IMG/VR virus record: IMGVR_UViG_3300045988_058353
Strand: one strand, 5' to 3'
DNA length: 43,817 nucleotides
Origin: a virus
This document shows, one piece after another, positions 77 through 43,817 of the stretch. Every line of letters starts with the position of its first letter. Positions within the stretch are counted from its first letter, which is position 1. Position numbers and translations under genes: made by a program. The notes under the pieces are model-generated. The model did no database searches. It was not told the origin of the DNA and saw only the letters and a list, made by a program, of their open reading frames with translations.

Positions 77-568
77 ATGGAATTTAGAGTATTTATCACA
101 AACTTAGGCAAGTATAACGAGGGTGAACTCGTAGGCAAGTGGCTTGACCTGCCGTGTGCAGACCTTGAAGCTGAACTCGCTGAAATCGGCGTTGCTCCTG
201 GTACTCAGTACGAGGAATACTTCATCACTGACTATGAAAATGAAGTAGGCTACGAGGTAGGCGAATATGAGAACGTGTGGGAACTGAATGAGCTGGCAGA
301 ACGCCTTGATGGTGTACGTGATGTTGACTGGCTGCTTGCTTACATGGATGTTACCGGTGAAGAACTTGACACAGCTATTGACAACTACGAGGAACGCAGC
401 AGCTTTTATCCTGGGCAGACCTTAGAAGATGTTGCCTATGATTTGGTAAATGATTGCTATAATCTGCCCGAAATCGCATTACGCTACTTTGACTATGAAG
501 CGTTCGCACGTGACCTGGGATATGATGGCTACACTGAAACAGATGACGGCGTAATTTGTGTTTGCTAG
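77..568 (+). CDS. ardA: ArdA-family antirestriction protein; occupies the position of T7 gene 0.3
   Basis: GGGAGG lies 8 nt upstream of the ATG. The N-terminus FITNLGKYNEGELVGKW matches the remembered ArdA N-terminal signature (Tn916 Orf18-type YIANLGKYNEGELVG). The protein is very acidic and is the first gene after the early promoters. Confidence 0.85.
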   Translation: MEFRVFITNLGKYNEGELVGKWLDLPCADLEAELAEIGVAPGTQYEEYFITDYENEVGYEVGEYENVWELNELAERLDGVRDVDWLLAYMDVTGEELDTAIDNYEERSSFYPGQTLEDVAYDLVNDCYNLPEIALRYFDYEAFARDLGYDGYTETDDGVICVC

Positions 569-2029: not shown

Positions 2030-2764
2030 ATGGAAAACAAGCAAGTACAAGTATTTAACAATGTGGAGTTCGGTGACGTTCGTGTCATCATGCAGGGTGA
2101 ACAGCCGTGGTTCGTGGGCAAGGATGTGGCTAGTGCGCTGGGTTATGGTGACACAGCGCAAGCTATCAGAAAGCGTGTTGAGAATGAAGATAAAGAGGTT
2201 GTCGAATTGACCACCCCCGGAGGAAAACAGAGAGCTATTATCATCAACGAATCTGGTTTGTATTCTTTCATTCTGTCCAGCAAGCTCCCTAGTGCTAAAC
2301 AGTTCAAACATTGGGTAACATCTGAAATTCTCCCGACGATTCGCCAACATGGTGCATATTTAACGCCGGAGAAAGTCGAAGAAGTGTTGATGAATCCAGA
2401 TACAATCATCAAGCTGGCTACTCAATTAAAGGCAGAACGTGAAGGACGTATCAAGGCAGAAACAGCATTAAAAGCAGCTACACCGAAAGTAGAATACTAT
2501 GATGAATATATGAATCGTGAAGAAACCTTTACTGTGACTTTCGTGGCGAACACATTGGCAATGGGACAACATCAGCTCTATAAGAAACTTAGAGAAATCG
2601 GATGGCTGTGCAAGCCTTATGGATGTTCACACCAAGTAACAGAAGATGCTCCCGAGGATGTGTTTAAAATCGTGCCTGTATTACATACTGGTGGCGGTAA
2701 AGGCTCTCAAATCCGTGTGACTGCCAAAGGTATGAAGAAGATTCAATCCTTGTTTGACAAATAG
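2030..2764 (+). CDS. Bro-N / KilAC-type phage antirepressor
   Basis: AGGAGG SD. The N-terminal region is Bro-N-like (VFNNVEFGDVRVI...PWFVGKDVASALGY...ESGLYSFILSSKLPSAKQFKHWVTSEILPTIRQHGAY). The C-terminal half is KilAC/antirepressor-like. Confidence 0.75.
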   Translation: MENKQVQVFNNVEFGDVRVIMQGEQPWFVGKDVASALGYGDTAQAIRKRVENEDKEVVELTTPGGKQRAIIINESGLYSFILSSKLPSAKQFKHWVTSEILPTIRQHGAYLTPEKVEEVLMNPDTIIKLATQLKAEREGRIKAETALKAATPKVEYYDEYMNREETFTVTFVANTLAMGQHQLYKKLREIGWLCKPYGCSHQVTEDAPEDVFKIVPVLHTGGGKGSQIRVTAKGMKKIQSLFDK

Positions 2765-2782
2765 CGAACAGTAGTTTATACT
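2754..2782 (+). promoter_or_regulatory. Near-consensus sigma70 promoter directly upstream of the RNAP gene
   Basis: TTGACA (2754-2759), 17-nt spacer, TATACT (2777-2782). The -35 element lies in the last codons of the antirepressor gene. Confidence 0.6.
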
Positions 2783-2800
2783 AATGTTCACAATAACAAA

Positions 2801-2849
2801 CAGCCTTTTGCTTTAAAAATCCCTTTAGCAAGGGGCTGTATTTCTTATA
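2801..2849 (+). terminator. Terminator/attenuator-like hairpin in the RNAP leader
   Basis: CAGCCTTTTGCT (2801-2812) pairs with AGCAAGGGGCTG (2827-2838): 12 bp including two G-U pairs, with a 14-nt loop, followed by TATTTCTTATA. It sits between the sigma70 promoter and the RNAP SD. Confidence 0.45.
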
Positions 2850-2873: not shown

Positions 2874-5432
2874 ATGTACAACCTGGAAGAATATGAAAAC
2901 CAATATGGCAAAATGTTTGTTCGTCAGCTTGAAATCGAAGAAGGTTACAAGCAGCTTGCAGCAGAAGCAACTAGCAAGACATATGAGAACGTAGAAAATT
3001 CTACGATGCAAGATGACGTTGCAAGCCAGACCAAGGCAGGACAGAAGTTCATTGCTGCTCAATGGGCACACGTCAACAACGCTATGACGCTGTTTGTGAA
3101 TAGCTGCTTGCAACCTAAAAAGGGTTCTAAAGCAAGCTATGTGCTGTTGGTGCAGGAAATTGAAAAGGTTTGTGGTAAAGAAAACATGGTTAACCTGTTC
3201 ACTCTGACCACGTTTACAACGCTGCTGAATGGTGTGTTGAAGAAAAAGACATCTCGTAGCACATTTGCCAAGAATATCAGTGATGAACTCTATTATGAAA
3301 TTAGCTTGCAAGCCTTTTTGAGTCAATCTGACTTTGCAGAAGTCATCAAAGAGGGTATCAAAAAGCGTGTGGGTATCTCCTATAAACGTGCCTATGTACG
3401 TGCTTGCATGGAACAAGGACAATATACCTACCATGAGTGGGACAAGGAACAACGCTTGACGCTGGCTACATCCTTAATGGAAGTTGTGTTAGCAGCAAGT
3501 AACTACTTTGAAACCACATCTGTGAACGGACTTACCGAGATTATCCCTAGTCAATTCCTTATTGACCAATGGCAGACCAAAACACAATGGCTCATTGATA
3601 ACAGCTACAAGTTCTGCCCCTGTGTGATTCCACCAAGAGAGTGGCAGAGTGTAACCGAGGGTGGATATTATGGCGAACTTGCCAATCAGACCAAGTTGCT
3701 GCGCTTGCGTGATAATCGTGATGTGTTCGCTAAACACTACTTTGCAAAGCTGGCTCAATTAGAACTTACTGATGTTCGCAAGGCTGTGAACGCTGTGCAG
3801 AACACACCCTGGAAGATAAACACAAGAGTCCTGGACGTTCTGAAACACGTGGTTGATATGGGTGGCGATATGGCAGGTATTCCGGCTGTGTATGAAGCAA
3901 CTAAACCCGAGGTGTTACCAGAGAACCCCACGGAAGAACAATTAAAAGTCTATAAAAAGCGTATGGTAGGCTTTTATAAACTTGAAACACGTAGAAAGTC
4001 TATCCTGCTGCGTATCTTATCACACCTCAGAACCGCTGAGAAGTTCGCTAAATACCCAAGAATATATTTTCCTTGTAACATGGATTTTCGTGGCAGAATT
4101 TATCCTGTTCCTGTGTTCTCGTTTCAAGGTGATGATGTCAACAAGTCGCTGATTGAGTTCGCAGATGCTCCAGCTTGTCAAGATGAAAACTGTTGGGACT
4201 GGTTGTTAATCGAAGGTGCAAACCTCGCAGGAGTTGACAAGGTGAGCTACGATGACCGCAAGGCGTGGGTAGCAGAGAACGAAGCACAAATCATGGCTGT
4301 TGTCAATAATCCTAAAGGTGAATTATGGTGGGCAAACCAAGATTCCCCATGTCAATTCTTAGCGTGGTGCTTTGAATATGCACGTGCGAAAGAGTGGAAG
4401 AACACACATAATGATTCCATAGTAGGTTTTGTGTGTGGCTTGAATATCGCTTTTGACGGAACGTGCTCTGGCTTGCAGCATTTTTCAGCGATACTGCGTG
4501 ACCCTGTAGGTGGTCAAGCTGTTAACCTTATTCCTGGTGATAAACCTAGCGATATTTATGGTATCGTAGCTGAAAAGGTTAACAAGGTGCTTGAAAAAGA
4601 TATGCTGAGCGGAACACAAGATGAAGAAGCTACCGACAAGCAAGGCAGAACGTACACCAAGCACGGAACACGTAGCTTGTCAAGCATTTGGTTAGCTTTT
4701 GGCGTGACTCGTAAAGTAACCAAGCGTAGCGTAATGACTCTTGCATATGGCTCTAAAGAGTACGGATTCCGTGACCAGATTTTAGAGGACACAATCAAAC
4801 CCGATGTAAACTTGAATGGTGAGAAGTCTGTGTTTGCAGGATGTGACTTTCAAGCAGCAGGTTATCTTGCTAAGCTCATTTGGGAAGCGGTAGGAACTAC
4901 TGTAATTGCTGCTGTTGAGGGCATGAAGTGGTTACAGACCTGTGCAAGAAAAGTAACCAAACATGACCAGGTTGTGTCCTGGACTACACCTATGGGACTG
5001 CCTGTGCAGCAAGCCTACATGAAGCAGGAAGTGCAAACCATCTTCACTCGCTGTGCAGGTAAGCAGATTCGCTTGTATAGTGCAGAGAATACCGGAGTAA
5101 TCGACAACAGAAGTCAAGCGTCTGGTATTGCTCCTAACTTTATTCATAGCATGGATGCAGCACATTTACAGTTGACAATTTGTAATTGTTATGATATGGG
5201 GATTCGTCATTATGCTATGATTCACGATTCCTATGGTGCGCCATTAGCACAAGCACAACTCATGTATGATACAGTACGTGAGAGCTTTATTCAGATGTAT
5301 ACTGATAACGATGTATTTCAGAATTTTCTGGATGATATGGAACTTCTTGCTGACGAGAAATTACCGAAGATTCCGAAAAAAGGAACACTTGATATTAATG
5401 TTGTTAGAGATTCGAAGTACATTTTCTGTTAA
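2874..5432 (+). CDS. T7-like single-subunit DNA-dependent RNA polymerase
   Basis: 852 aa with GGAGG SD. Motifs DFRGRIYP, FDGTCSGLQHFSAILRD, MTLAYGS, IAPNFIHSMDAAH and MIHDSYG are co-linear with T7 gp1. Confidence 0.95.
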   Translation: MYNLEEYENQYGKMFVRQLEIEEGYKQLAAEATSKTYENVENSTMQDDVASQTKAGQKFIAAQWAHVNNAMTLFVNSCLQPKKGSKASYVLLVQEIEKVCGKENMVNLFTLTTFTTLLNGVLKKKTSRSTFAKNISDELYYEISLQAFLSQSDFAEVIKEGIKKRVGISYKRAYVRACMEQGQYTYHEWDKEQRLTLATSLMEVVLAASNYFETTSVNGLTEIIPSQFLIDQWQTKTQWLIDNSYKFCPCVIPPREWQSVTEGGYYGELANQTKLLRLRDNRDVFAKHYFAKLAQLELTDVRKAVNAVQNTPWKINTRVLDVLKHVVDMGGDMAGIPAVYEATKPEVLPENPTEEQLKVYKKRMVGFYKLETRRKSILLRILSHLRTAEKFAKYPRIYFPCNMDFRGRIYPVPVFSFQGDDVNKSLIEFADAPACQDENCWDWLLIEGANLAGVDKVSYDDRKAWVAENEAQIMAVVNNPKGELWWANQDSPCQFLAWCFEYARAKEWKNTHNDSIVGFVCGLNIAFDGTCSGLQHFSAILRDPVGGQAVNLIPGDKPSDIYGIVAEKVNKVLEKDMLSGTQDEEATDKQGRTYTKHGTRSLSSIWLAFGVTRKVTKRSVMTLAYGSKEYGFRDQILEDTIKPDVNLNGEKSVFAGCDFQAAGYLAKLIWEAVGTTVIAAVEGMKWLQTCARKVTKHDQVVSWTTPMGLPVQQAYMKQEVQTIFTRCAGKQIRLYSAENTGVIDNRSQASGIAPNFIHSMDAAHLQLTICNCYDMGIRHYAMIHDSYGAPLAQAQLMYDTVRESFIQMYTDNDVFQNFLDDMELLADEKLPKIPKKGTLDINVVRDSKYIFC

Positions 5433-10636: not shown

Positions 10637-10808
10637 AAACACAAGTAAAAGAAAACAACATTATCGTAAGAACACATTCAAATTAGCTGAGTGTGTTTCA
10701 ATGATGGATTTATTAGAAGCTGACGTTGACCACGTTGGCTTATTTTTCTATGTAGCTGATAAAGTCATGGAGGTTAGAGAACATGAAATTGCCCGTTGTC
10801 AACATTAG
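10617..10808 (+). CDS. Hypothetical small basic protein (63 aa)
   Basis: In-frame ATG within track ORF 10542-10808, with a weak GGTGG SD. It overlaps the helicase end and the nrdG start. Confidence 0.3.
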   Translation: MKKVTSKNTSKRKQHYRKNTFKLAECVSMMDLLEADVDHVGLFFYVADKVMEVREHEIARCQH

Positions 10809-11283
10809 CGTGAGCTTAAATGAGATTCCGAACCATATCGCTGTTGCTGTTGAACTTGGTAACTGTAAACAGAAGTGTCACGGCTGTCATAGCGAATGGC
10901 TTTCTATTCCGCTACCTAAGAAAAGTTGGATGGAATTGGAAACTCTGATGTATCAAATCAATAAGCAAGTGAAACAAGGTGCAGATGCTATTGTGCTGAT
11001 GGGTGGTACACATAATGGTGTATCAACTGCTGAACTTATTGAAGCTATTAACATCTTGTCACACTATGCTCCTATTGGTCTGTACAGTGGACTGCCAGAG
11101 AAAGCTGAGGTACACAAGCGACTGATGAGTGCTGATGTAAAACTATCTTGGCTTAAAGTAGGCAACTACGATGCTAAATGTGGCGATTTAACTTCTCCTA
11201 ACACCAATCAACACTTCTACCAGAAGAATGGGGAAGGTACATGGGAAGATATTACATTCCTGTTTTGGGATGAACAACATTGA
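10783..11283 (+). CDS. nrdG: Anaerobic ribonucleotide reductase activating protein (radical SAM)
   Basis: GGAGG SD. Contains the CX3CX2C cluster motif CKQKCHGC. It is adjacent to nrdD. Confidence 0.8.
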   Translation: MKLPVVNISVSLNEIPNHIAVAVELGNCKQKCHGCHSEWLSIPLPKKSWMELETLMYQINKQVKQGADAIVLMGGTHNGVSTAELIEAINILSHYAPIGLYSGLPEKAEVHKRLMSADVKLSWLKVGNYDAKCGDLTSPNTNQHFYQKNGEGTWEDITFLFWDEQH

Positions 11284-11297
11284 GTATTAATACTCAA
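11280..11297. repeat. 18-bp palindrome, copy 4 (perfect)
   Basis: Its TGA is the nrdG stop codon. Confidence 0.9.
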
Positions 11298-11318
11298 CTA
11301 TATGAAAGAGGATTGATA

Positions 11319-13082
11319 ATGGATATTAATAAGAAAATTGATTTCATTCACAATTTTATTAGAGCGTCCAATCCTGCTACTGGTAGTGAAGTTGATAGTA
11401 ACGCTAATGTTACTGTCAAGTCACTGGCGGTAATGGAAGCGGAACTCTTTAAGCGTGAATTTATTAACGTAAACCGAGCTATGGTGATGCGAAAGCTGGA
11501 AGCTATGTATGGTTATGAGATGGCTAAGCAATACTATAAAGATATTGAAGAACACCTAATCTACATCCATGATGAAACCAGCTTGCGTCCTTACTGTGTT
11601 TCTGTGTCGCTCTATCCGTTCCTGCTTGAAGGCACGAAGAATCTCGGTGGTACTTCTAAAGCTCCTACGAATCTCCAAAGTTTCTGTGGTAGCTTTGTGA
11701 ACCTAATCTACCAAATTGCTAGTGACTTTGCCGGAGCTGTTGCGACTGTTGAGTTCTTGATGTATTTCGATTACTTTGCGCGCAAGCAATATGGCTATGG
11801 TTATCTTGCACATCACTACAAAGAGATTGCACAAGAGTTTCAAGGTGTTGTATATGCCATGAACCAACCTGCTGCTGCTCGTGGTAGTCAGTCTGTGTTC
11901 TGGAACATTTCTGTGTTTGACGAAAAATACTTTGAATCACTGTTTGGCAACTTCTATTTTCCAGATGGTACTAAACCCGATTACAACAGTGTACGTCAAT
12001 TACAAGAGATGTTTTTATATTGGTTCACCCAAGAGCGCACTAAAGAGCTGCTAACATTCCCGGTGCTGACTGCTGCATATCTCGTGGATAAAGATAAACG
12101 CAAGCCGATTGACACAGGTTTTGAATACGTTCTTGCTAAAGCTATGAGTGACGGACTGAGCTTTTTCCACTATGAATCTGATAGTGCTGATAGCTTAGCT
12201 TCTTGCTGCCGACTGCGTAACGAATTGGCAGACAATACATTCTCTTATACCCTTGGTGCAGGTGGTGTATCTACTGGCAGCTACCAAGTAATCACCATCA
12301 ACTTTAATAGGATGTATCAACGTGGTTATGAATTAAGTCATGTGGTAGAGCGAGTACACAAGTATCTGATGGCTTTCCGGGCAATTATCTCTGAGTACAT
12401 TGAAGCTGGCTTGCTGCCGACATACAGTGCAGGATACATCAGCTTGGATAAACAATTCGGTACTATTGGTATCAATGGTGCTCTGGAAGCCTATGAGTAT
12501 ATGCGTGCTAACGGCTACCAAAACACTTTTAAAGAGCATTTGCAGATGGACTTGTCTATCATCAAAACTCTCAATAAAGAAGCACTCGTTCAGTATGGTG
12601 TACGCTTTAATACTGAGTTTGTACCTGCTGAAAACCTTGGTGTCAAGAACGCTAAATGGGACAGAGAAGATGGCTTGTACGTTCCTCGTGATTGTTACAA
12701 TAGCTACTTCTATCCTGTGGAAGATACAAACTTGACTATTCTGGATAGACTTGATGCACACGCTTGGGATGTATCTCAATACCTCGATGGCGGTGCAGCT
12801 TGCCACCTTAATTTGGAGCAACTGCCCACCCCGACACAAGCTGTTAAACTTATTGAGCTTGCTGCTAGGATGGGTGTACCTTATTGGACTACCAATGTAC
12901 TGTGTACGATTTGTAAAGACTGTGAACGAATTGACCCTGTAACACGCCAGACCTGCAAATACTGCGGTTCTAAGAATCTCGATTATGGCACACGTGTTAT
13001 TGGTTACTTGAAGCCTATTTCAAGTTTTTCTGAGGGTCGACAAAAGGAAGCTGCTATGCGTTCCTATATGAAAGGAGTTTAA
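11319..13082 (+). CDS. nrdD: Class III (anaerobic) ribonucleoside-triphosphate reductase
   Basis: Has a C-terminal Cys4 (CTICKDC...CKYCGS) followed by the glycyl-radical motif TRVIGYL. The start was moved to ATG 11319 (AGAGGA SD), because the track TTG start at 11280 lies inside the palindrome. Confidence 0.9.
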   Translation: MDINKKIDFIHNFIRASNPATGSEVDSNANVTVKSLAVMEAELFKREFINVNRAMVMRKLEAMYGYEMAKQYYKDIEEHLIYIHDETSLRPYCVSVSLYPFLLEGTKNLGGTSKAPTNLQSFCGSFVNLIYQIASDFAGAVATVEFLMYFDYFARKQYGYGYLAHHYKEIAQEFQGVVYAMNQPAAARGSQSVFWNISVFDEKYFESLFGNFYFPDGTKPDYNSVRQLQEMFLYWFTQERTKELLTFPVLTAAYLVDKDKRKPIDTGFEYVLAKAMSDGLSFFHYESDSADSLASCCRLRNELADNTFSYTLGAGGVSTGSYQVITINFNRMYQRGYELSHVVERVHKYLMAFRAIISEYIEAGLLPTYSAGYISLDKQFGTIGINGALEAYEYMRANGYQNTFKEHLQMDLSIIKTLNKEALVQYGVRFNTEFVPAENLGVKNAKWDREDGLYVPRDCYNSYFYPVEDTNLTILDRLDAHAWDVSQYLDGGAACHLNLEQLPTPTQAVKLIELAARMGVPYWTTNVLCTICKDCERIDPVTRQTCKYCGSKNLDYGTRVIGYLKPISSFSEGRQKEAAMRSYMKGV

Positions 13083-15007: not shown

Positions 15008-15638
15008 AAACTCCCTCGTTGTGCACCTAAAATTGTGTGAAATCAGAGAAAGCCTTATAGGTCAATTCTGAGCTAAGCTAGGAGGTAATTTATGCGTGGG
15101 AAACCACTTGTATTAAAACAACTTGACAATGGTTGCATAATTCCTCTCTCACATAAATTGAATAAGGACGGGTATTTCAGAACACATGACCCTCGGTATA
15201 AGGGCAAAGGACGTTCACCACTAATTATGTATCACAGATACGTATGGGAAGAAAATCATGGTGCGATTCCTGTTGGTTATGAAATTGACCATTTATGTCA
15301 CAACAGAGCGTGTTGTAATATTGAGCATTTACAATGTATTCCTATTGTTGCTCATAAAGTTAAACATAATACCACACGTTATGCTGACAGAAAACAAGCT
15401 GCTAAGGAATACTGGCTATCTCATGTTGAGATTACTGGTACTGCCTTAGCTTCCTTATTTAATGTGAGTTTCGGTTCTGCTTGTAAGTGGATTCGAGAAT
15501 GGAAAGTGCAGAGACTATCCGAAACGGAGTAGGTGTAGAGGGTGAGATTCCCTCTATTGCCGAAGCGCACAACAATGTGACCCACATACACATTGATGAT
15601 ATAGTCCGACACTTCTAGTAATAGAAGAATACAGTAAG
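15008..15638 (+). mobile_element. Group I-like intron carrying an HNH homing endonuclease, inserted in DNA polymerase motif C
   Basis: The 631-nt insert separates WVH from DEGQLACRT. The last exon-1 base is T (15007) and the last insert base is G (15638), fitting group I splice rules. Structured elements include CTTCTA-GTAA-TAGAAG (15612-15627) and AGAGGG-TGAGATT-CCCTCT (15537-15555). Confidence 0.7.
15092..15532 (+). CDS. HNH homing endonuclease (intron ORF)
   Basis: AGGAGG SD. HNH motif YEIDHLCHNRACCNIEHLQ...AHKVKHN, with a C-terminal HTH-like segment. Confidence 0.85.
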   Translation: MRGKPLVLKQLDNGCIIPLSHKLNKDGYFRTHDPRYKGKGRSPLIMYHRYVWEENHGAIPVGYEIDHLCHNRACCNIEHLQCIPIVAHKVKHNTTRYADRKQAAKEYWLSHVEITGTALASLFNVSFGSACKWIREWKVQRLSETE

Positions 15639-16316: not shown

Positions 16317-16482
16317 GCTGAGTCCGATTCGCTTGCAAGGCAAAATCAATCGTATTCGTGTTGAGATTGAGGGAACTGATAAGAAGATGTATCTGGTAGA
16401 CCCCTCTGATATTTTAATTGTAGATGAAGAAGGAGGACTGACGTTCAATGTCAACAGCAACACTTGTATCAGTAACGCCTAA
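16240..16482 (+). CDS. Hypothetical protein
   Basis: GTG start 6 nt after GTGGAGG. No family recognised. Confidence 0.45.
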   Translation: MIKQKHSNNEVYLIRKGAKVTFPIVKLSPIRLQGKINRIRVEIEGTDKKMYLVDPSDILIVDEEGGLTFNVNSNTCISNA

Positions 16483-17044
16483 TTACATGGAGCTTTTGAA
16501 GCTGGCTTGTAGTAAACCTTATGGAAACGATGTGTCCGACAAAGGTATTCAACACATCATTGATAGTGGTCACTTGTCTGTATTGGAACACTGCTACGCT
16601 TCCTTTGAGGTTGAGTGTTCCGTGCGTGTATTAGGTCAGCTTACACGTCACCGCCACTTGTCCTTTACCTGTAAGAGTGCAAGAGGCAGTAAATTTGATG
16701 TAGTGGAACAACCGCATTTTGAATTTGCGACTGATGCTTCTACGTTTGAATATTTAAGTAGAATTGCTCTCGTTCCATACAACCTCGCACTTGAAGAAGG
16801 TATAGCGGAGCAGGATGCAGCCTATTTGTTACCGCAAGGTGCTAGTACATCTATTGTGGTCACTGGTAACTTCCGTGCTTGGTTTGAATACCTGCCGAAA
16901 CGCCTGTGCAAACGTGCAATGCCGGAGCACAGGGAATTAGCTGGGCAGATTCACAAAGAGTTAGCAAAAGCTGTTCCAGAAGTGTTCGATAGAGGTTTTA
17001 TGAATTGTCTTAACTGTAATGAAAGGAGCTGTGAGTTTAAATGA
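16448..17044 (+). CDS. thyX: Flavin-dependent thymidylate synthase
   Basis: ThyX signature RHRHLSF, plus the SVLEH context. Confidence 0.9.
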   Translation: MSTATLVSVTPNYMELLKLACSKPYGNDVSDKGIQHIIDSGHLSVLEHCYASFEVECSVRVLGQLTRHRHLSFTCKSARGSKFDVVEQPHFEFATDASTFEYLSRIALVPYNLALEEGIAEQDAAYLLPQGASTSIVVTGNFRAWFEYLPKRLCKRAMPEHRELAGQIHKELAKAVPEVFDRGFMNCLNCNERSCEFK

Positions 17045-40431: not shown

Positions 40432-40617
40432 ATGGAAGATGCGAAGGTAAAGTTACGAACCTTCTATCTCACTTACCAGAAGTACATCAGCCTTACCTTT
40501 AGTTTAATCACTGTGGCTTTCTTTTATGCCCTTCACCGAGGGGACTTAAAGTACCTCGTTGAAATACTAAAGGTAGCACAAACCCTAATCCAAATCCTGT
40601 GTGGTACTGCTGCATGA
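40432..40617 (+). CDS. Small membrane protein
   Basis: AGAAGGTG SD. One TMD (ISLTFSLITVAFFYAL). Confidence 0.4.
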   Translation: MEDAKVKLRTFYLTYQKYISLTFSLITVAFFYALHRGDLKYLVEILKVAQTLIQILCGTAA

Positions 40618-41099
40618 TAAACAAAAAGATAACAGTGAGTCTACTAGCCGGTGTGTTGATTGGCTGTGTTTTAGCCAACACATACATCTCGGTCAGACGT
40701 GCAGGGAACACAGAAGTCCACACGCAGGAAACATCTAAAATCACCACCGAATCCACTCTCAAAGTGACCACTAAGACCACCAAGAGTGACCCGGATTTGG
40801 TTGTGTCTAATAGGTACGTGGCGAAGATTGATGGTAAGTATGTGGAAGCTCCCTTAAAGACCACAAAAGACACATCCACTGCTGTTGTGTCTACCACTAT
40901 CGACGTGACACCACTTGTTAAACAGATGACCCCTAAATGGGAAGCAGGTATTGGTGTAGGATGTGTTGATAAAAAATTACTGCCCTGTGTTAGCTTGCAG
41001 AGAAACTACAAGCAAGACAAGGCAGTCGAAGCAGTAATACAGATGGATACACAAGGACACTTCAAAGGTGCTAGTGTCATCCATAAGTGGCGATTTTAA
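40614..41099 (+). CDS. Putative lipoprotein
   Basis: ATGA overlap with the previous gene. Signal-like MINKKITVSLLAGVLIGC with a lipobox-like LIGC. The mature part is Thr/Lys-rich and ends ...HKWRF. Confidence 0.45.
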   Translation: MINKKITVSLLAGVLIGCVLANTYISVRRAGNTEVHTQETSKITTESTLKVTTKTTKSDPDLVVSNRYVAKIDGKYVEAPLKTTKDTSTAVVSTTIDVTPLVKQMTPKWEAGIGVGCVDKKLLPCVSLQRNYKQDKAVEAVIQMDTQGHFKGASVIHKWRF

Positions 41100-41332: not shown

Positions 41333-41593
41333 CCCTTTGTCACTTGATAATACCCCTTCTATTGTGACAAAGATTGTGACACGATTTGCGGAAACCGCAT
41401 ATTAACGCTATTGTAGGAATATTAAATATAACAAACCGTTATAATGGTGTGTTTACCTGTTGTTACCTGTAATTCCCTCTAAACCCTTGATTTCAAGCCT
41501 TTTGTACCACTTTTTAAGGCTTGTGTTTACACATCTTTATCCTTCCTTTACTGTTACTTTGTGACTACATAGTGACAGCTTTTGTGACACTTT
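41333..41593. other. attP candidate: repeat-rich non-coding region between xis and int
   Basis: Six (T/A)GTGAC sites are present: 41336-41343 (inverted), 41361-41372, 41373-41383, 41558-41565, 41568-41577 and 41581-41590. There is also a tandem (T/G)TTACCTGT at 41451-41470. Confidence 0.5.
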
Positions 41594-42775
41594 TTACTTG
41601 GTGCAGTCCATGAGATTAGCAGCTAATTGGTGTTGTTTCTTGATGGTGTGTGCATACACATCAAAGGTGATAGACACACTTGAATGACCTAAGCGTTCAC
41701 TAACAGTTTTGTAATCGTTACCGGATAGTTCAATAAGTTTCGTTGCATTTGTGTGCCTTAGGGAGTGAAACGTGAAGTGCCTGGTAATACCTGCTTTTAA
41801 TAAATATCTTTGAAAACACGCTCGAAGCGTACCTCCTGCTAAAATTTTAGTGCCATTGAAATCCTTAGAGAATACATAATCATCCTTGTCTGAGAACTGG
41901 AAGGATGCTTTGTGTTTTGTAAGAATTTCAATCAGACCCTCTGAGATAACTATAAGGCGATTAGAAGATGCTGTTTTTGGTGTTGAATCCACAATACCTT
42001 TCGACAGGGTGACACGTTGATTATCTACATGAATAGTGTGATTCTTAAAATCAACACGTGACCACCTTAACCCTAAGATTTCACCGATACGCATTCCTGT
42101 TTCATATGCTATCATAAAGGCAACATAGAGTAGAGATGCAGCATCTGGTTTGTGTTGTGGTTTTTCTTCTAATCTCGTATCATAAGCAGCTTTCAGAACC
42201 CCTCTGAGAGCTTCAAATTCGCCTTCTGAGAGGACTTCTATGTCACTCTTAGGGAACTTAGTAGCCACCCATAAACAGCCTTCTGTGGGACTTGTAGAAA
42301 TGATTTTGAGCACTCTGATAGCATAGTTGAATACAATACGTATCAGAGTTAGATAGGCTCTTATAGAGCGTTCTGCTTTGTGTTGTTTACGCATTGCTGT
42401 GATGAACTCATCAATATCCTTTGTGGTAATCTTTGAGATGGTCTTTGTGGCAAGATAAGGAGCAATTACCTTTAGGTGATTTTGGTAGTGGTAGAGTGTT
42501 GTTTCCTTGACATTGGAGCGTGACTGCTTGTACTCAATGTAGTTCTTAGCAAGTGCTTCAAAGGTCATGTTCATACTTACTGCTACATCTGCTTCATCAC
42601 GGAGCTTCATGAAACCACGAAGTAACACACGTGCTTCTGTAAGGCTATCTGCTGTTCCAGAGAGCTGCTTGCGTTTACCATTGACGTAGCCACAGTCGAG
42701 CCTTATGCGATACTTATTGTTATCCAGTTTGGTTATAGAACCTTCACCTTTTGTTCTTCTACGTTTTGTTGACAT
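41594..42775 (-). CDS. int: Tyrosine recombinase / phage integrase
   Basis: AGGAGG SD. C-terminal catalytic region ...GMRIGEILGLRW...HSLRHTNATKLI...LGHSSVSITFDVYAH. Confidence 0.95.
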   Translation of the reverse strand: MSTKRRRTKGEGSITKLDNNKYRIRLDCGYVNGKRKQLSGTADSLTEARVLLRGFMKLRDEADVAVSMNMTFEALAKNYIEYKQSRSNVKETTLYHYQNHLKVIAPYLATKTISKITTKDIDEFITAMRKQHKAERSIRAYLTLIRIVFNYAIRVLKIISTSPTEGCLWVATKFPKSDIEVLSEGEFEALRGVLKAAYDTRLEEKPQHKPDAASLLYVAFMIAYETGMRIGEILGLRWSRVDFKNHTIHVDNQRVTLSKGIVDSTPKTASSNRLIVISEGLIEILTKHKASFQFSDKDDYVFSKDFNGTKILAGGTLRACFQRYLLKAGITRHFTFHSLRHTNATKLIELSGNDYKTVSERLGHSSVSITFDVYAHTIKKQHQLAANLMDCTK

Positions 42776-43020
42776 TGTTGTGTACCTCCTAAATTGAAAA
42801 ATTGTAGAAAATTTTGTGAAGGGGTATTTAAATAGATTTTCGTGCTATTTTCCCCCATTAGTGTGTCATTTTGCCATCATCAGTCACCATCAGCTAACAT
42901 CAACAAAAGTTAGCAGTGTGAAATACATCAGCAAGGCAAGCGGAAACACTAGGGAAAACAACTGTTACAATGTGTTATAATGTGTTATTATCTTCATTAT
43001 AGCCGGGAAACTAGCTGCTG

Positions 43021-43063
43021 CATAGTGATTGACTGTTTGATGTCACTATGTAAGACACTATGA
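43021..43063. repeat. CATAGTGA inverted and direct repeats upstream of int
   Basis: CATAGTGA (43021-43028), TCACTATG (43043-43050) and CACTATGA (43056-43063). The same word, CATAGTGACA, occurs at 41568. Confidence 0.6.
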
Positions 43064-43128
43064 TAACACGTTCGGTCATAATAAAAGTTCACAAATTGTT
43101 TACATTCTGTTACCTGGTTGCTTACTTA

Positions 43129-43146
43129 TTGAGTATTAATACTCGA
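43129..43146. repeat. 18-bp palindrome, copy 7 (TTGAGTATTAATACTCGA)
   Basis: Followed by TAGC and then a run of 10 T. Confidence 0.85.
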
Positions 43147-43158
43147 TAGCTTTTTTTT

Positions 43159-43187
43159 TTGCAAAAATTAGTACCAGGTGCTAAACT
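43159..43187 (+). promoter_or_regulatory. sigma70 promoter for a short + strand transcript
   Basis: TTGCAA (43159-43164), 17 nt, TAAACT (43182-43187), with a T-run upstream. Confidence 0.5.
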
Positions 43188-43193
43188 TTCTGA

Positions 43194-43358
43194 TAACTTA
43201 GTGGGACAAAATGCGTCCCTATGAAAATATAACTGTAATTTTTATCTGTTTGTTTATCATTTAGAATACATTTAGACCACATCTGGAATACATCCAGCCA
43301 CACAAAAAAGCCGTCACATAATGTTACATAATGTAGCAATGTGACGGCTTTTTTTTTA
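43194..43358 (+). ncRNA. Candidate ~165-nt small RNA, or carrier of a 17-codon ORF, in the immunity region
   Basis: Bounded by the promoter above and the strong terminator at 43304-43358. It contains only a 17-codon ORF (MRPYENITVIFICLFII) with a weak SD, and tandem GAATACAT(T/C)(T/C)AG.CCACA repeats. Confidence 0.3.
43304..43358. terminator. Bidirectional intrinsic terminator
   Basis: AAAAAA, then GCCGTCACA (43310-43318), a 21-nt loop, TGTGACGGC (43340-43348), then TTTTTTTTT. It serves the RHH gene on the minus strand and the short + transcript. Confidence 0.8.
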
Positions 43359-43369
43359 CTTTTTGGCTA

Positions 43370-43537
43370 TTAAAAATCTATAGTTTTTCTTGTTAACCAC
43401 TTTTCAATCATTTGTCTTAATAATTCACTTGAATTTATAGAACGCTCTTTACACGCTCTTTGAAACTCTTCTTTTAGTTCCTTATCTAATCTTATTTGAA
43501 TTACTACTCTTTTATTATTTTCATCTGTAAAAGTCAT
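43370..43537 (-). CDS. Ribbon-helix-helix (CopG/Arc-type) DNA-binding protein; candidate immunity repressor (55 aa, not in the ORF track)
   Basis: AGGAGGTG SD. In MTFTDENNKRVVIQIRLDKELKEEFQRACKERSINSSELLRQMIEKWLTRKTIDF, a beta strand (VVIQIRL) is followed by two helices, as in RHH proteins. Confidence 0.6.
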   Translation of the reverse strand: MTFTDENNKRVVIQIRLDKELKEEFQRACKERSINSSELLRQMIEKWLTRKTIDF

Positions 43538-43557
43538 CTTTTTCACCTCCTAAAAAT

Positions 43558-43586
43558 AGTATAGCATATTGTCATGACAAAAGCAA
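43558..43586 (-). promoter_or_regulatory. Promoter of the RHH gene with an embedded 12-bp palindromic operator
   Basis: On the minus strand: TTGCTT (43586-43581), 17 nt, TATACT (43563-43558). The spacer contains the perfect palindrome TTGTCATGACAA (43569-43580). Confidence 0.6.
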
Positions 43587-43626
43587 TCCATTTATTTTCT
43601 AATTGCCATTATATGAAGAAAAGCGA

Positions 43627-43644
43627 TTGAGTATTAATACTCAA
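43627..43644. repeat. 18-bp palindrome, copy 8 (perfect)
   Basis: Lies between the divergent RHH and early promoters and is followed by AAATTTTTT. Confidence 0.9.
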
Positions 43645-43663
43645 AAATTTTTTCAAAAAGTGC

Positions 43664-43692
43664 TTGACATCGTCATGACACTAGTGTATTAT
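43664..43692 (+). promoter_or_regulatory. Host sigma70-type early promoter P_A
   Basis: TTGACA (43664-43669), 17-nt spacer TCGTCATGACACTAGTG, TATTAT (43687-43692). It has the same AAAAAGTGCTTGACA upstream context as P_B. GTCATGAC lies in the spacer. Confidence 0.7.
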
Positions 43693-43706
43693 AATAACCA
43701 ACAGAG

Positions 43707-43724
43707 GTCATGACGCAACATGAC
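43707..43724. promoter_or_regulatory. Operator-like sites downstream of P_A
   Basis: GTCATGAC (43707-43714) and CATGAC (43719-43724). Confidence 0.5.
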
Positions 43725-43762
43725 GCGAAAGAGGGAAACAAAATGAGTAAATGAAAAAAAAA

Positions 43763-43817
43763 TAAATAAAAAGTGCTTGACAAAGCCATGACAATGATGT
43801 AAGATTATATCAACAAA
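43763..43817. repeat. Second copy of the window-end redundancy (equals 1-55, includes P_B)
   Basis: Identical to bases 1-55. Confidence 0.9.

Follow-up and report, generated by a model that had tools for sequence, protein, structure and literature searches.

A candidate ribbon-helix-helix immunity switch in a temperate T7-like phage of Phascolarctobacterium succinatutens

How could a phage that carries the gene for its own RNA polymerase keep its early genes silent as a prophage? The question is raised by the IMG/VR virus record IMGVR_UViG_3300045988_058353, a stretch of 43,817 nucleotides (hereafter, the window), which is the circular genome of a temperate T7-like phage infecting the gut bacterium Phascolarctobacterium succinatutens, a Negativicute. 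Bases 1-55 recur exactly at 43763-43817, the overlap of a circular assembly, so that the genome is circularly assembled and 43,762 bp long. We analysed its putative switch region at 43370-43817, in which a small ribbon-helix-helix (RHH) gene is divergent from the host-type early promoters, and compared it with related loci. From this comparison it appears probable that the 55-residue RHH protein is the phage's immunity repressor.

The small gene and the boxes of its switch region

The RHH gene lies on the minus strand at 43370-43537, and its product (MTFTDENNKRVVIQIRLDKEL...) begins MTFTDENN. Residues 16-53 match the Pfam family RHH_1 (PF01402) with an E-value of 2.9e-9 and 37 bits, compared to a curated cut-off of 20.5, and the PHROG assignment is repressor/Arc-like. 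Homologues fall into four clusters with 67-89% identity (alignment A2) and begin at the same methionine as the 55-residue frame, indicating that a longer, GTG-started reading frame is not the gene; according to precomputed annotation, the homologues P0001-P0004 also bear PF01402. In an alignment of these four with the window's protein, the N-terminal arm, the beta-strand and the start of helix 2 (TDENNKRVVxQIRLDKE, INSSELLR) are invariant and the remainder varies. A Shine-Dalgarno sequence, AGGAGGTG (43544-43551, minus strand), stands 6 nt 5' of the ATG, with the predicted transcript start at or next to it, a layout that is found again in groups B and C of the relatives. On the other side of the gene, the interval towards the integrase gene contains a bidirectional intrinsic terminator (43304-43357), composed of an A-run, the hairpin GCCGTCACAT...ATGTGACGGC and a T-run. 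This hairpin, which has a 10-bp GC-rich stem and a structured loop, folds with -26.7 kcal/mol (z -6.4), and none of 200 shuffled sequences folded equally well; it had escaped a simple terminator scan because of its long loop. The reading frame, the strong Shine-Dalgarno sequence and the two-way terminator that an initial annotation of this DNA had described are thus all in place. The terminator and about 530 bp separate the RHH gene from the integrase gene. When we searched the complete spacer (42776-43369, 594 bp) for a hidden conserved gene, such as an excisionase (Xis) or a second repressor, we obtained only matches to relatives that were short and in mixed frames, and we therefore regard the spacer as non-coding.

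The promoter of the RHH gene, P_rhh (43558-43586, minus strand; alignment A1), consists of the -35 hexamer TTGCTT (43586-43581), a 17-nt spacer and the extended -10 element TGcTATACT (43566-43558). Its -35 matches at only 3/6 positions, which is why a simple promoter scan missed it. Inside the spacer lies the palindrome TTGTCATGACAA (O_R, 43569-43580), just as the initial annotation had it, and we predict this to be the autoregulatory site. On the plus strand, the early promoter P_A (43664-43692, TTGACA-17-TATTAT) agrees with the sigma-70 consensus at 11/12 positions and contains the 8-bp box GTCATGAC in its spacer (O_A1, 43672-43679). Two additional boxes, a second GTCATGAC (O_A2, 43707-43714) and the half-conserved AACATGAC (O_A3, 43717-43724), follow at about +9 to +26 with their centres 10 bp apart, so that the spacer box and the downstream motifs claimed for P_A were recovered as well. 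The second early promoter, P_B (43777-43805, plus strand; TTGACA-17-TAAGAT, 10/12 of the consensus), has the mismatched box GCCATGAC in its spacer (43785-43792). Since the terminal 55 bases are the assembly overlap, P_B and the sequence at 15-43 are one physical promoter, in agreement with the initial annotation, which had equated them. Counted from the sequence, the box centre falls at about -23.5 in all three promoters, P_rhh, P_A and P_B. The small gene belongs to the lysogeny module, is divergent from the early promoters, and is accompanied by repeated sites over these promoters and over its own.

The 8-mer had first been judged by eye to occur nowhere else, and a genome-wide count yielded the same answer: GTCATGAC is present three times in the 43.8-kb window (43571, 43672 and 43707), all copies lying in the switch within 145 bp. 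With an expected number of 0.68, three copies are reached in 3 of 100 shuffles, and three sites placed at random on a 43.8-kb circle would lie within 145 bp of DNA with a probability of 3.2e-5. For the 10-mer TGTCATGACA, with one mismatch allowed, the count in the window was not above chance. The signal resides in the 8-mer, in its clustering and in its conservation.

Two smaller elements of the region may be mentioned here. On the minus strand, 5' of P_rhh, there is a second promoter-like site (TTAATA-18-TATAAT, 10/12; 43608-43637), whose -10 falls in a block, TTATATGAAGAAAA, that is kept in groups A-C, and whose -35 lies inside an 18-bp palindrome discussed below; the repressor gene could be transcribed from this site as well. 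On the plus strand, 3' of P_A, a three-codon mini-ORF (open reading frame; ATG AGT AAA TGA, 43743-43754) occupies the place where relatives have a first early gene of 78-81 codons, a member of phrog_17101 (unknown function) that is absent from the window.

Conservation and joint exchange in related phages

The contigs of the relatives keep the order integrase, RHH and then the divergent early genes for ArdA, a SprT-like protein, a Bro-N/ANT protein and RNA polymerase. In addition to the four clusters, IMG/VR contains a fifth lineage, L107, with an RHH protein 71% identical to the window's (70.8% over 48 residues), an integrase 47% and an RNA polymerase 64% identical; its RHH protein departs at three of the otherwise invariant arm, strand and helix-2 positions. 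The switch DNA of the diverged lineages is about 72-77% identical to that of the window, with insertions and deletions, and their RHH proteins are 67-71% identical. The box nevertheless stays at three places, namely in the P_rhh spacer, directly after the -35 of P_A and 3' of the -10 of P_A, amid altered flanks that have, for example, lost the 18-bp palindrome or lead into different first early genes. In groups A-D, O_R is kept as GTCATGACA and the downstream pair as GGTCATGACAAAnCATGAC, and GTCATGAC(A) is the form retained at the conserved promoter positions of the diverged lineages. As for the promoters themselves, the pattern TTGC[TA]T-17-TGnTATA[CA]T of P_rhh is kept in groups A, B and C, and the P_A hexamers are invariant (alignment A1).

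Protein and box also occur together. Among 72 related loci, 15 have both the RHH1 signature and at least two GTCATGAC boxes, 56 have neither, and a single one (L004) combines the signature with fewer than two boxes; two or more boxes without the signature were found in none of the 72. The background against which these numbers are to be read is 16 single boxes in 716 kb of related loci, and in the homologous loci GTCATGAC is essentially absent outside the switch.

The most telling comparison is with three phages, L098, L099 and L101, whose integrase and RNA polymerase are 98-99% identical to the window's, and which encode a different 55-residue protein in the RHH slot (L098 1429-1596, L099 2143-2310, L101 2211-2378). 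This type-2 protein (MGTDKPKFTVIVDEEVLEMIEAYRY...) matches phrog_4738, annotated as 'transcriptional repressor'. Since it has no Pfam match, and since a profile comparison with the window's RHH family revealed no similarity, we do not call it RHH. In these phages, GTTCAGAAnTTCTGAAC replaces GTCATGAC in the promoter spacer of the small gene and in both early promoters, P_A and P_B, where it occupies the spacer and recurs shortly 3' of the start. The exchange has sharp borders in the alignment of the window with L099: the DNA is 94% identical over 41415-43289, dissimilar across the terminator and the small gene, 80% identical in an island at 43592-43669, dissimilar again in the operator region, and 93% identical from 566 on. 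More distant members show further pairs. L144 has an RHH protein 50% identical to the window's (about 796-915) together with GTTCCCACAA sites in the same layout; L015, a prophage in a 467-kb contig of a Phascolarctobacterium metagenome-assembled genome (MAG), has one that is 34% identical, together with ATGGAATGCCAT and GGAATGCaaaGGCATTCC; and in L016, L106, L108 and L113, proteins of 65-69 residues that look like helix-turn-helix (HTH) proteins go with GTAACGAAAACGTGAC or GTGACGAAAACGTCAC.

Across this phage family, at least eight different small proteins occupy the slot next to the integrase gene (further examples are L123 at 2343-2525, and L102, L111 and L122). Four types are RHH by Pfam (the window type, L015, L123, and L137/L138/L152, the last below threshold), one has a repressor match in PHROG only, L144 is an untyped RHH relative, and two look like HTH proteins. 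In the cases inspected, a distinct repeated motif goes with each protein, placed in the spacer of the early promoter and again a little further 3'.

Repressor and operator thus vary together between otherwise similar phages, as heteroimmunity cassettes do. Because protein and boxes are exchanged jointly, the pattern expected of an immunity region, the small protein probably reads the boxes, and we regard this joint exchange as the strongest non-experimental evidence for such a relationship. It bears directly on a different assignment, in which a host transcription factor or another phage protein binds the boxes and the RHH protein is an antitoxin, an excision directionality factor or a plasmid-type copy regulator. 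RHH_1 proteins do include many antitoxins and plasmid regulators, and the window's protein has weak matches to RelB, CopG-antitoxin and ParG. However, the box type switches whenever the small protein does and never otherwise, and this is so also where two phages share a host and are 98-99% identical in integrase and RNA polymerase; a host factor would not co-vary with the small protein in this way. Moreover, a type II toxin-antitoxin role had to be rejected, as the gene has no adjacent toxin gene and is followed by a terminator straight after its stop codon, and so had a role in excision, as no boxes occur near attP, which is 2 kb off. We consider this assignment very improbable.

A second repeated element had to be considered as a possible operator. 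The perfect palindrome TTGAGTATTAATACTCAA is present in eight copies of 18 bp with 0-1 mismatches (1490, 1910, 7092, 11280, 15791, 22140, 43129 and 43627), which are always intergenic. Two copies flank the RHH gene within a 32-nt inverted repeat, one lies 20 bp 5' of the -35 of P_A, and one just 5' of the phage promoter at 1935. As RNA, it would form a weak hairpin of -6 to -7 kcal/mol. The palindrome is found in both immunity types of group A, is located elsewhere in group B, and shows symmetric changes (TTGATTATTAATAATCAA) in group C. Its intergenic copies, including those near P_A and the 1935 promoter, would suit a true operator that imposes a genome-wide, stoperator-like block, but the palindrome is missing from the switch of groups B and C despite the same RHH type, and it is unchanged in the type-2 phages, whose protein differs. 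As it does not co-vary with the repressor protein, we rejected it as the RHH operator, and the idea of a stoperator-like block is, of all readings considered here, the one to which we give the least credence.

The proposed circuit and the RNA polymerase gene

A mechanism can be proposed from the observations made here, that is, the features themselves, their conservation, the co-variation of protein and box, and the integration described below. Each box, an 8-bp palindrome GTCATGAC, would take one RHH dimer, and the invariant strand residues R10, V12, Q14 and R16 may face the CATG core of GGTCATGACAAAACATGACA. Bound to the spacer box near -23.5 of P_A and P_B, the repressor would exclude host RNA polymerase, and at P_A the tandem boxes at about +9 to +26, with their 10-bp spacing, would add a cooperative second lock. 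The single -23.5 box in the extended -10 promoter P_rhh would confer negative autoregulation, with a weaker block than at P_A; because P_A has three boxes and P_rhh one, the early operon would close at a repressor concentration too low to stop the repressor's own synthesis. The controlled operon would comprise ardA, the sprT-like gene, ant and, by read-through, the RNA polymerase gene. Once made, the first phage RNA polymerase would start at the phage promoter at 1935 to transcribe ant and the polymerase gene itself, and at five box-free phage promoters to transcribe the rest of the genome. As the 1935 promoter precedes both ant and the polymerase gene, any polymerase made would amplify itself, and the lytic choice would then be self-reinforcing and beyond the repressor's reach. 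That the protein binds and represses, with what stoichiometry it does so, that the promoters differ in occupancy and that the polymerase feeds back on itself, we infer from the geometry of the sites and by analogy to known RHH repressors such as Arc, Mnt, MetJ, CopG and omega.

Several observations weigh against the RHH protein as the immunity repressor, or at least against so simple a circuit. In L004 (3543-3772), the RHH protein is identical to P0001, yet the autoregulatory site and the one immediately 3' of P_A both read GTCGTGAC and the next site reads CATGGCA, leaving the box in the P_A spacer alone intact; the repressor may tolerate such variants, or they may be operator mutations by which repression is loosened. 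At P_B of the window, the box is mismatched and the downstream boxes of the relatives are missing: the pair found 5' of ardA in L002 and L100 is precisely gone (ATCAACAAA[...]ACACAAAGGGAGG; L097 and L098 were also compared), so that P_B is perhaps less tightly controlled here. The window's exact P_B variant had no match in an exact search of IMG/VR. An AlphaFold2 monomer model of the RHH protein, built from five sequences, is of low confidence (pLDDT 65) and has a helix where the strand is expected, the nearest solved RHH proteins match the window's protein weakly, and the type-2 protein is not assignable to the RHH fold by sequence. Furthermore, junction contigs do not prove maintained lysogeny, since integration without stable lysogeny has been reported for T7-like cyanophages (PMC8776855). 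Finally, a third host-type promoter, P_RNAP (2754-2782, plus strand; TTGACA-17-TATACT, 11/12 of the consensus), lies directly 5' of the RNA polymerase gene and has no GTCATGAC box, indicating that the RHH protein cannot be the only lock.

P_RNAP is conserved in groups A-D, and the conservation starts exactly at its -35. One part of the initial annotation, that a single small repressor autoregulates and also shuts both early promoters, is favoured by the boxes in four diverged lineages, the association across 72 loci and the cassette exchange, but does not hold for the repressor as sole lock; with a box-free promoter directly before the gene, the RHH protein alone probably does not lock the polymerase. 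In the same way, silencing P_A and P_B, which had been put forward as the minimal requirement for lysogeny, falls short of one, because P_RNAP has no box and the phage promoter at 1935-1955 precedes the ant-polymerase pair.

What else could hold off P_RNAP? Its spacer contains CGAACAGTAGTTTA (2765-2778), which resembles the LexA-binding Cheo box and matches 8/10 strict positions of CGAAC-N4-GTTCG, a Firmicute consensus that may not be the host's. It is the window's only match to the relaxed pattern CGAACNNNNGTTYG at no more than one mismatch, a count that is not significant by itself, and the strict pattern GAAC-N4-GTTC has no match in the window. In other lineages (L102-108, L110, L114, L122 and L144), Cheo boxes matching 9-10/10 positions are found at the same place, and related loci totalling about 0.7 Mb contain 23 boxes of this quality, of which 14 fall within -82 to +47 of the polymerase gene start. 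The leader of the gene contains, in addition, a conserved hairpin with a U-rich tract, a possible attenuator (2800-2849, plus strand; -21.5 kcal/mol, z -3.3), with a stem of 12-13 bp; in group C this hairpin is weak, and there is little covariation in it.

With this box-free, Cheo-bearing promoter conserved before the polymerase gene, the protein might play another part. The RHH protein would bind the boxes to shut the early operon off during the lytic phase or to regulate its dosage, like P22 Arc at P_ant, rather than as the maintenance repressor, and silence in the prophage would come mainly from control of the polymerase gene, through the LexA-like box at P_RNAP and the leader hairpin, or from an unrecognised factor. 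T7-like phages normally switch off transcription by host RNA polymerase after the early phase, and the early operon includes an Ant-like gene, just as the Arc/Mnt-controlled operon of P22 (immI) contains ant. Such a part is difficult to reconcile with the position of the RHH gene in the lysogeny module, next to int and on its strand, with a predicted autoregulated promoter of its own and insulated by a terminator. It also fails to account for the swapping of the gene as an immunity-type cassette between near-identical phages, as selection for heteroimmunity produces, and it leaves the phage with no evident repressor, since Pfam and PHROG scans of about 30 other ORFs detected no HTH, MarR or other repressor-like protein. 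We therefore judge a mere shut-off function unlikely, and continue with the RHH protein as the candidate maintenance repressor.

For the RNA polymerase gene, we hypothesize that it has its own lock, possibly host LexA. A LexA lock would give the phage a route of induction that the 55-residue RHH protein, which has no cleavage domain, lacks. Host LexA and the leader hairpin may together hold off P_RNAP, and DNA damage would then be the inducing signal, a step in which we place lower confidence. Combined, these elements suggest a two-lock circuit, in which an exchangeable RHH or HTH cassette would control the host-type early promoters and its own promoter through operators in fixed slots, and host LexA, joined in some lineages by a leader attenuator, would gate P_RNAP, such that DNA damage would release a trickle of RNA polymerase that amplifies itself and escapes the repressor. 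We offer this full circuit tentatively, as a possibility with less than even chances. If it proves true, no T7-like phage before would have had its lysis-lysogeny switch fully specified, and this one would come with natural heteroimmune variants, and LexA control of the polymerase gene would be its possible induction route.

Known switches, integration and genome context

How does this arrangement compare to switches that are already understood? In the immI region of P22, the RHH repressors Arc and Mnt act on the divergent promoters P_ant and P_mnt through operators within or over the promoter, with an antirepressor gene and negative autoregulation. The phage described here shares the small RHH protein, the divergent promoters and an antirepressor-like gene in the controlled operon, together with predicted operators inside the promoters and predicted negative autoregulation. 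P22, however, has two RHH proteins that are accessory to the main HTH repressor C2, whereas here a single RHH protein is the sole repressor candidate and the operon leads to an RNA polymerase; similarity in sequence to Arc amounts to weak PHROG 'Arc-like' matches. As in the O_R region of lambda, where CI and Cro act, the candidate repressor gene is divergent from the early promoters, with predicted operators over both sides, predicted autoregulation and an immunity region exchanged as a cassette. Unlike in lambda, there is no self-cleaving domain, and no Cro counterpart is evident, as the first early gene is absent or variable; lytic commitment would be expected from autocatalysis of the RNA polymerase instead. 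Finally, the operators of MetJ, CopG and omega are short palindromic or repeated boxes that take one RHH dimer each, with neighbouring dimers cooperating, and the met-box of MetJ, AGACGTCT, is an 8-bp palindrome as well. Centre to centre, the boxes are spaced by 10 bp here, wider than the 8 bp of MetJ and the 7 bp of omega, and no corepressor is implied here.

T7-like phages were long treated as strictly lytic, but temperate ones are already known; what is new here is the proposed RHH-type switch with predicted operators in host-type promoters. In the temperate T7-like phages Pasto (Agrobacterium), HTVC019P (Pelagibacter) and LUZ100 (Pseudomonas), MarR-like regulators have been proposed, and concrete evidence for the entering or maintaining of lysogeny in such phages remains ambiguous, according to the LUZ100 paper (PMC10134795). 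The present phage resembles these three in its T7-like genome with an integrase and a small adjacent regulator proposed to keep the RNA polymerase off, and LUZ100 in the phage promoter 5' of the polymerase gene and the positive feedback that this implies (PMC10134795). In all three, a MarR-like winged-helix protein that shares a transcript with int is the regulator, and its sites are proposed to lie on either side of the phage promoter that precedes the polymerase gene (PMC10134795). By contrast, the regulator here is an RHH protein (HTH in some relatives) on its own transcript, no MarR-like gene stands beside int or is cotranscribed with it, and the boxes lie inside host-type early promoters and the regulator's own promoter; the host, too, differs in being a Negativicute, and the RNA polymerase is at most 39% identical to those of deposited phages. 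A further parallel in function is F55 of the archaeal virus SSV1, a 55-residue RHH protein that keeps the carrier or lysogenic state and has repeated short binding sites both in early promoters and in the promoter of its own gene (PMC9608457). Size, fold family and the placement of the boxes, whose binding is predicted here, are alike, but SSV1 has archaeal promoters, 11-nt direct sites rather than an 8-bp palindrome, and a release via RadA (PMC9608457); homology between F55 and the window's protein was neither looked for nor seen.

The layout of the switch is legible almost down to the single base, with one tiny candidate repressor and four or five boxes at defined promoter positions. Nature has supplied variants in which the protein and all boxes are exchanged together in an otherwise 93-99% identical genome, so that candidate orthogonal repressor/operator pairs are on offer beside an orthogonal polymerase/promoter pair.

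Site-specific integration into Phascolarctobacterium succinatutens is real. The tyrosine integrase gene (41594-42775, minus strand; Pfam Phage_integrase, E 5.5e-29) is located close to the attP core GGAATATTAAATATAACAAACCGTTATAA (41416-41444). The homology of the window to the contigs L001, L003 and L005 ends at 41415, and beyond the equivalent of this position these contigs hold bacterial genes for an SNF-family transporter, argH, argG and ornithine carbamoyltransferase (OTCase). Between the junction contigs, which derive from the samples SRR22034790-92, and P. succinatutens YIT 12067, in which the site is empty, the transporter shows 100% identity. A 29-bp core, TTATAACG[A/G]TTTGTTATATTTAATATTCC, is common to the phage (41416-41444), the empty site (L017, about 2840-2870) and the junction (L001, about 2607-2635), placing attB 5' of the SNF-family transporter gene; host and integration site are thereby named for an uncultured family of gut phages. 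Groups B and C differ from this both in their integrases and in the host genes at the flanks, where L010 and L012, for example, have Ppx-GppA, and related prophages are found inside large Phascolarctobacterium MAG contigs.

The T7-like character of the genome is evident from its single-subunit RNA polymerase gene (2874-5432, plus strand; Pfam RNA_pol, E 5.7e-106), a repeated cognate promoter and a one-strand T7 gene order, in keeping with a temperate, Autographiviridae-like phage. T7-type replication and virion genes are present, including homologues of the single-stranded DNA-binding protein (SSB), endonuclease I, gp13/gp14 and primase-helicase. In protein comparisons, the RNA polymerase is nearest to those of Ralstonia phages (35-39% identity), and a DNA search with the int-RHH-switch region returned no match among deposited phages. 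The sequence ACTGACACACGnATAGnAGAA, of 21-23 nt, resembles a phage-polymerase promoter and is present in six copies, all on the plus strand, where none would be expected by chance; the copy at 1935-1955 is the one 5' of ant and the polymerase gene. Of the early genes, ardA is the first (77-568, plus strand; antirestriction, Pfam ArdA, E 3.8e-34), and the antirepressor-like gene (2030-2764, plus strand) encodes Bro-N and ANT domains by Pfam, of the Bro-N/KilAC kind, with a match to phrog_130, anti-repressor Ant (E 3.6e-69).

A few minor observations complete the picture. An Rfam scan of the window gave no match. Auxiliary genes at 10783-13082, 16448-17044 and 15092-15532 are typical of a phage of an anaerobe. 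They encode an anaerobic ribonucleotide reductase, NrdD, which is assigned from synteny with L006 and has a radical-SAM-like partner, as well as ThyX and an HNH endonuclease. The last phage promoter (40133-40153) reads through an ORF of 166 codons with no family match (40599-41099) and through attP, and then antisense into int; the bidirectional terminator at 43304-43357 would halt its transcripts short of the switch. Two long, stable hairpins of about -30 kcal/mol (z about -6.3) at 566-630 and 1418-1482, built on CTTGCAGGG...CCTTGCAGG, lie 3' of early genes and have no U-run. The same hairpins also follow the first early gene in L001, L002 and L098-L100, and they resemble the RNase III processing sites between the early genes of T7.

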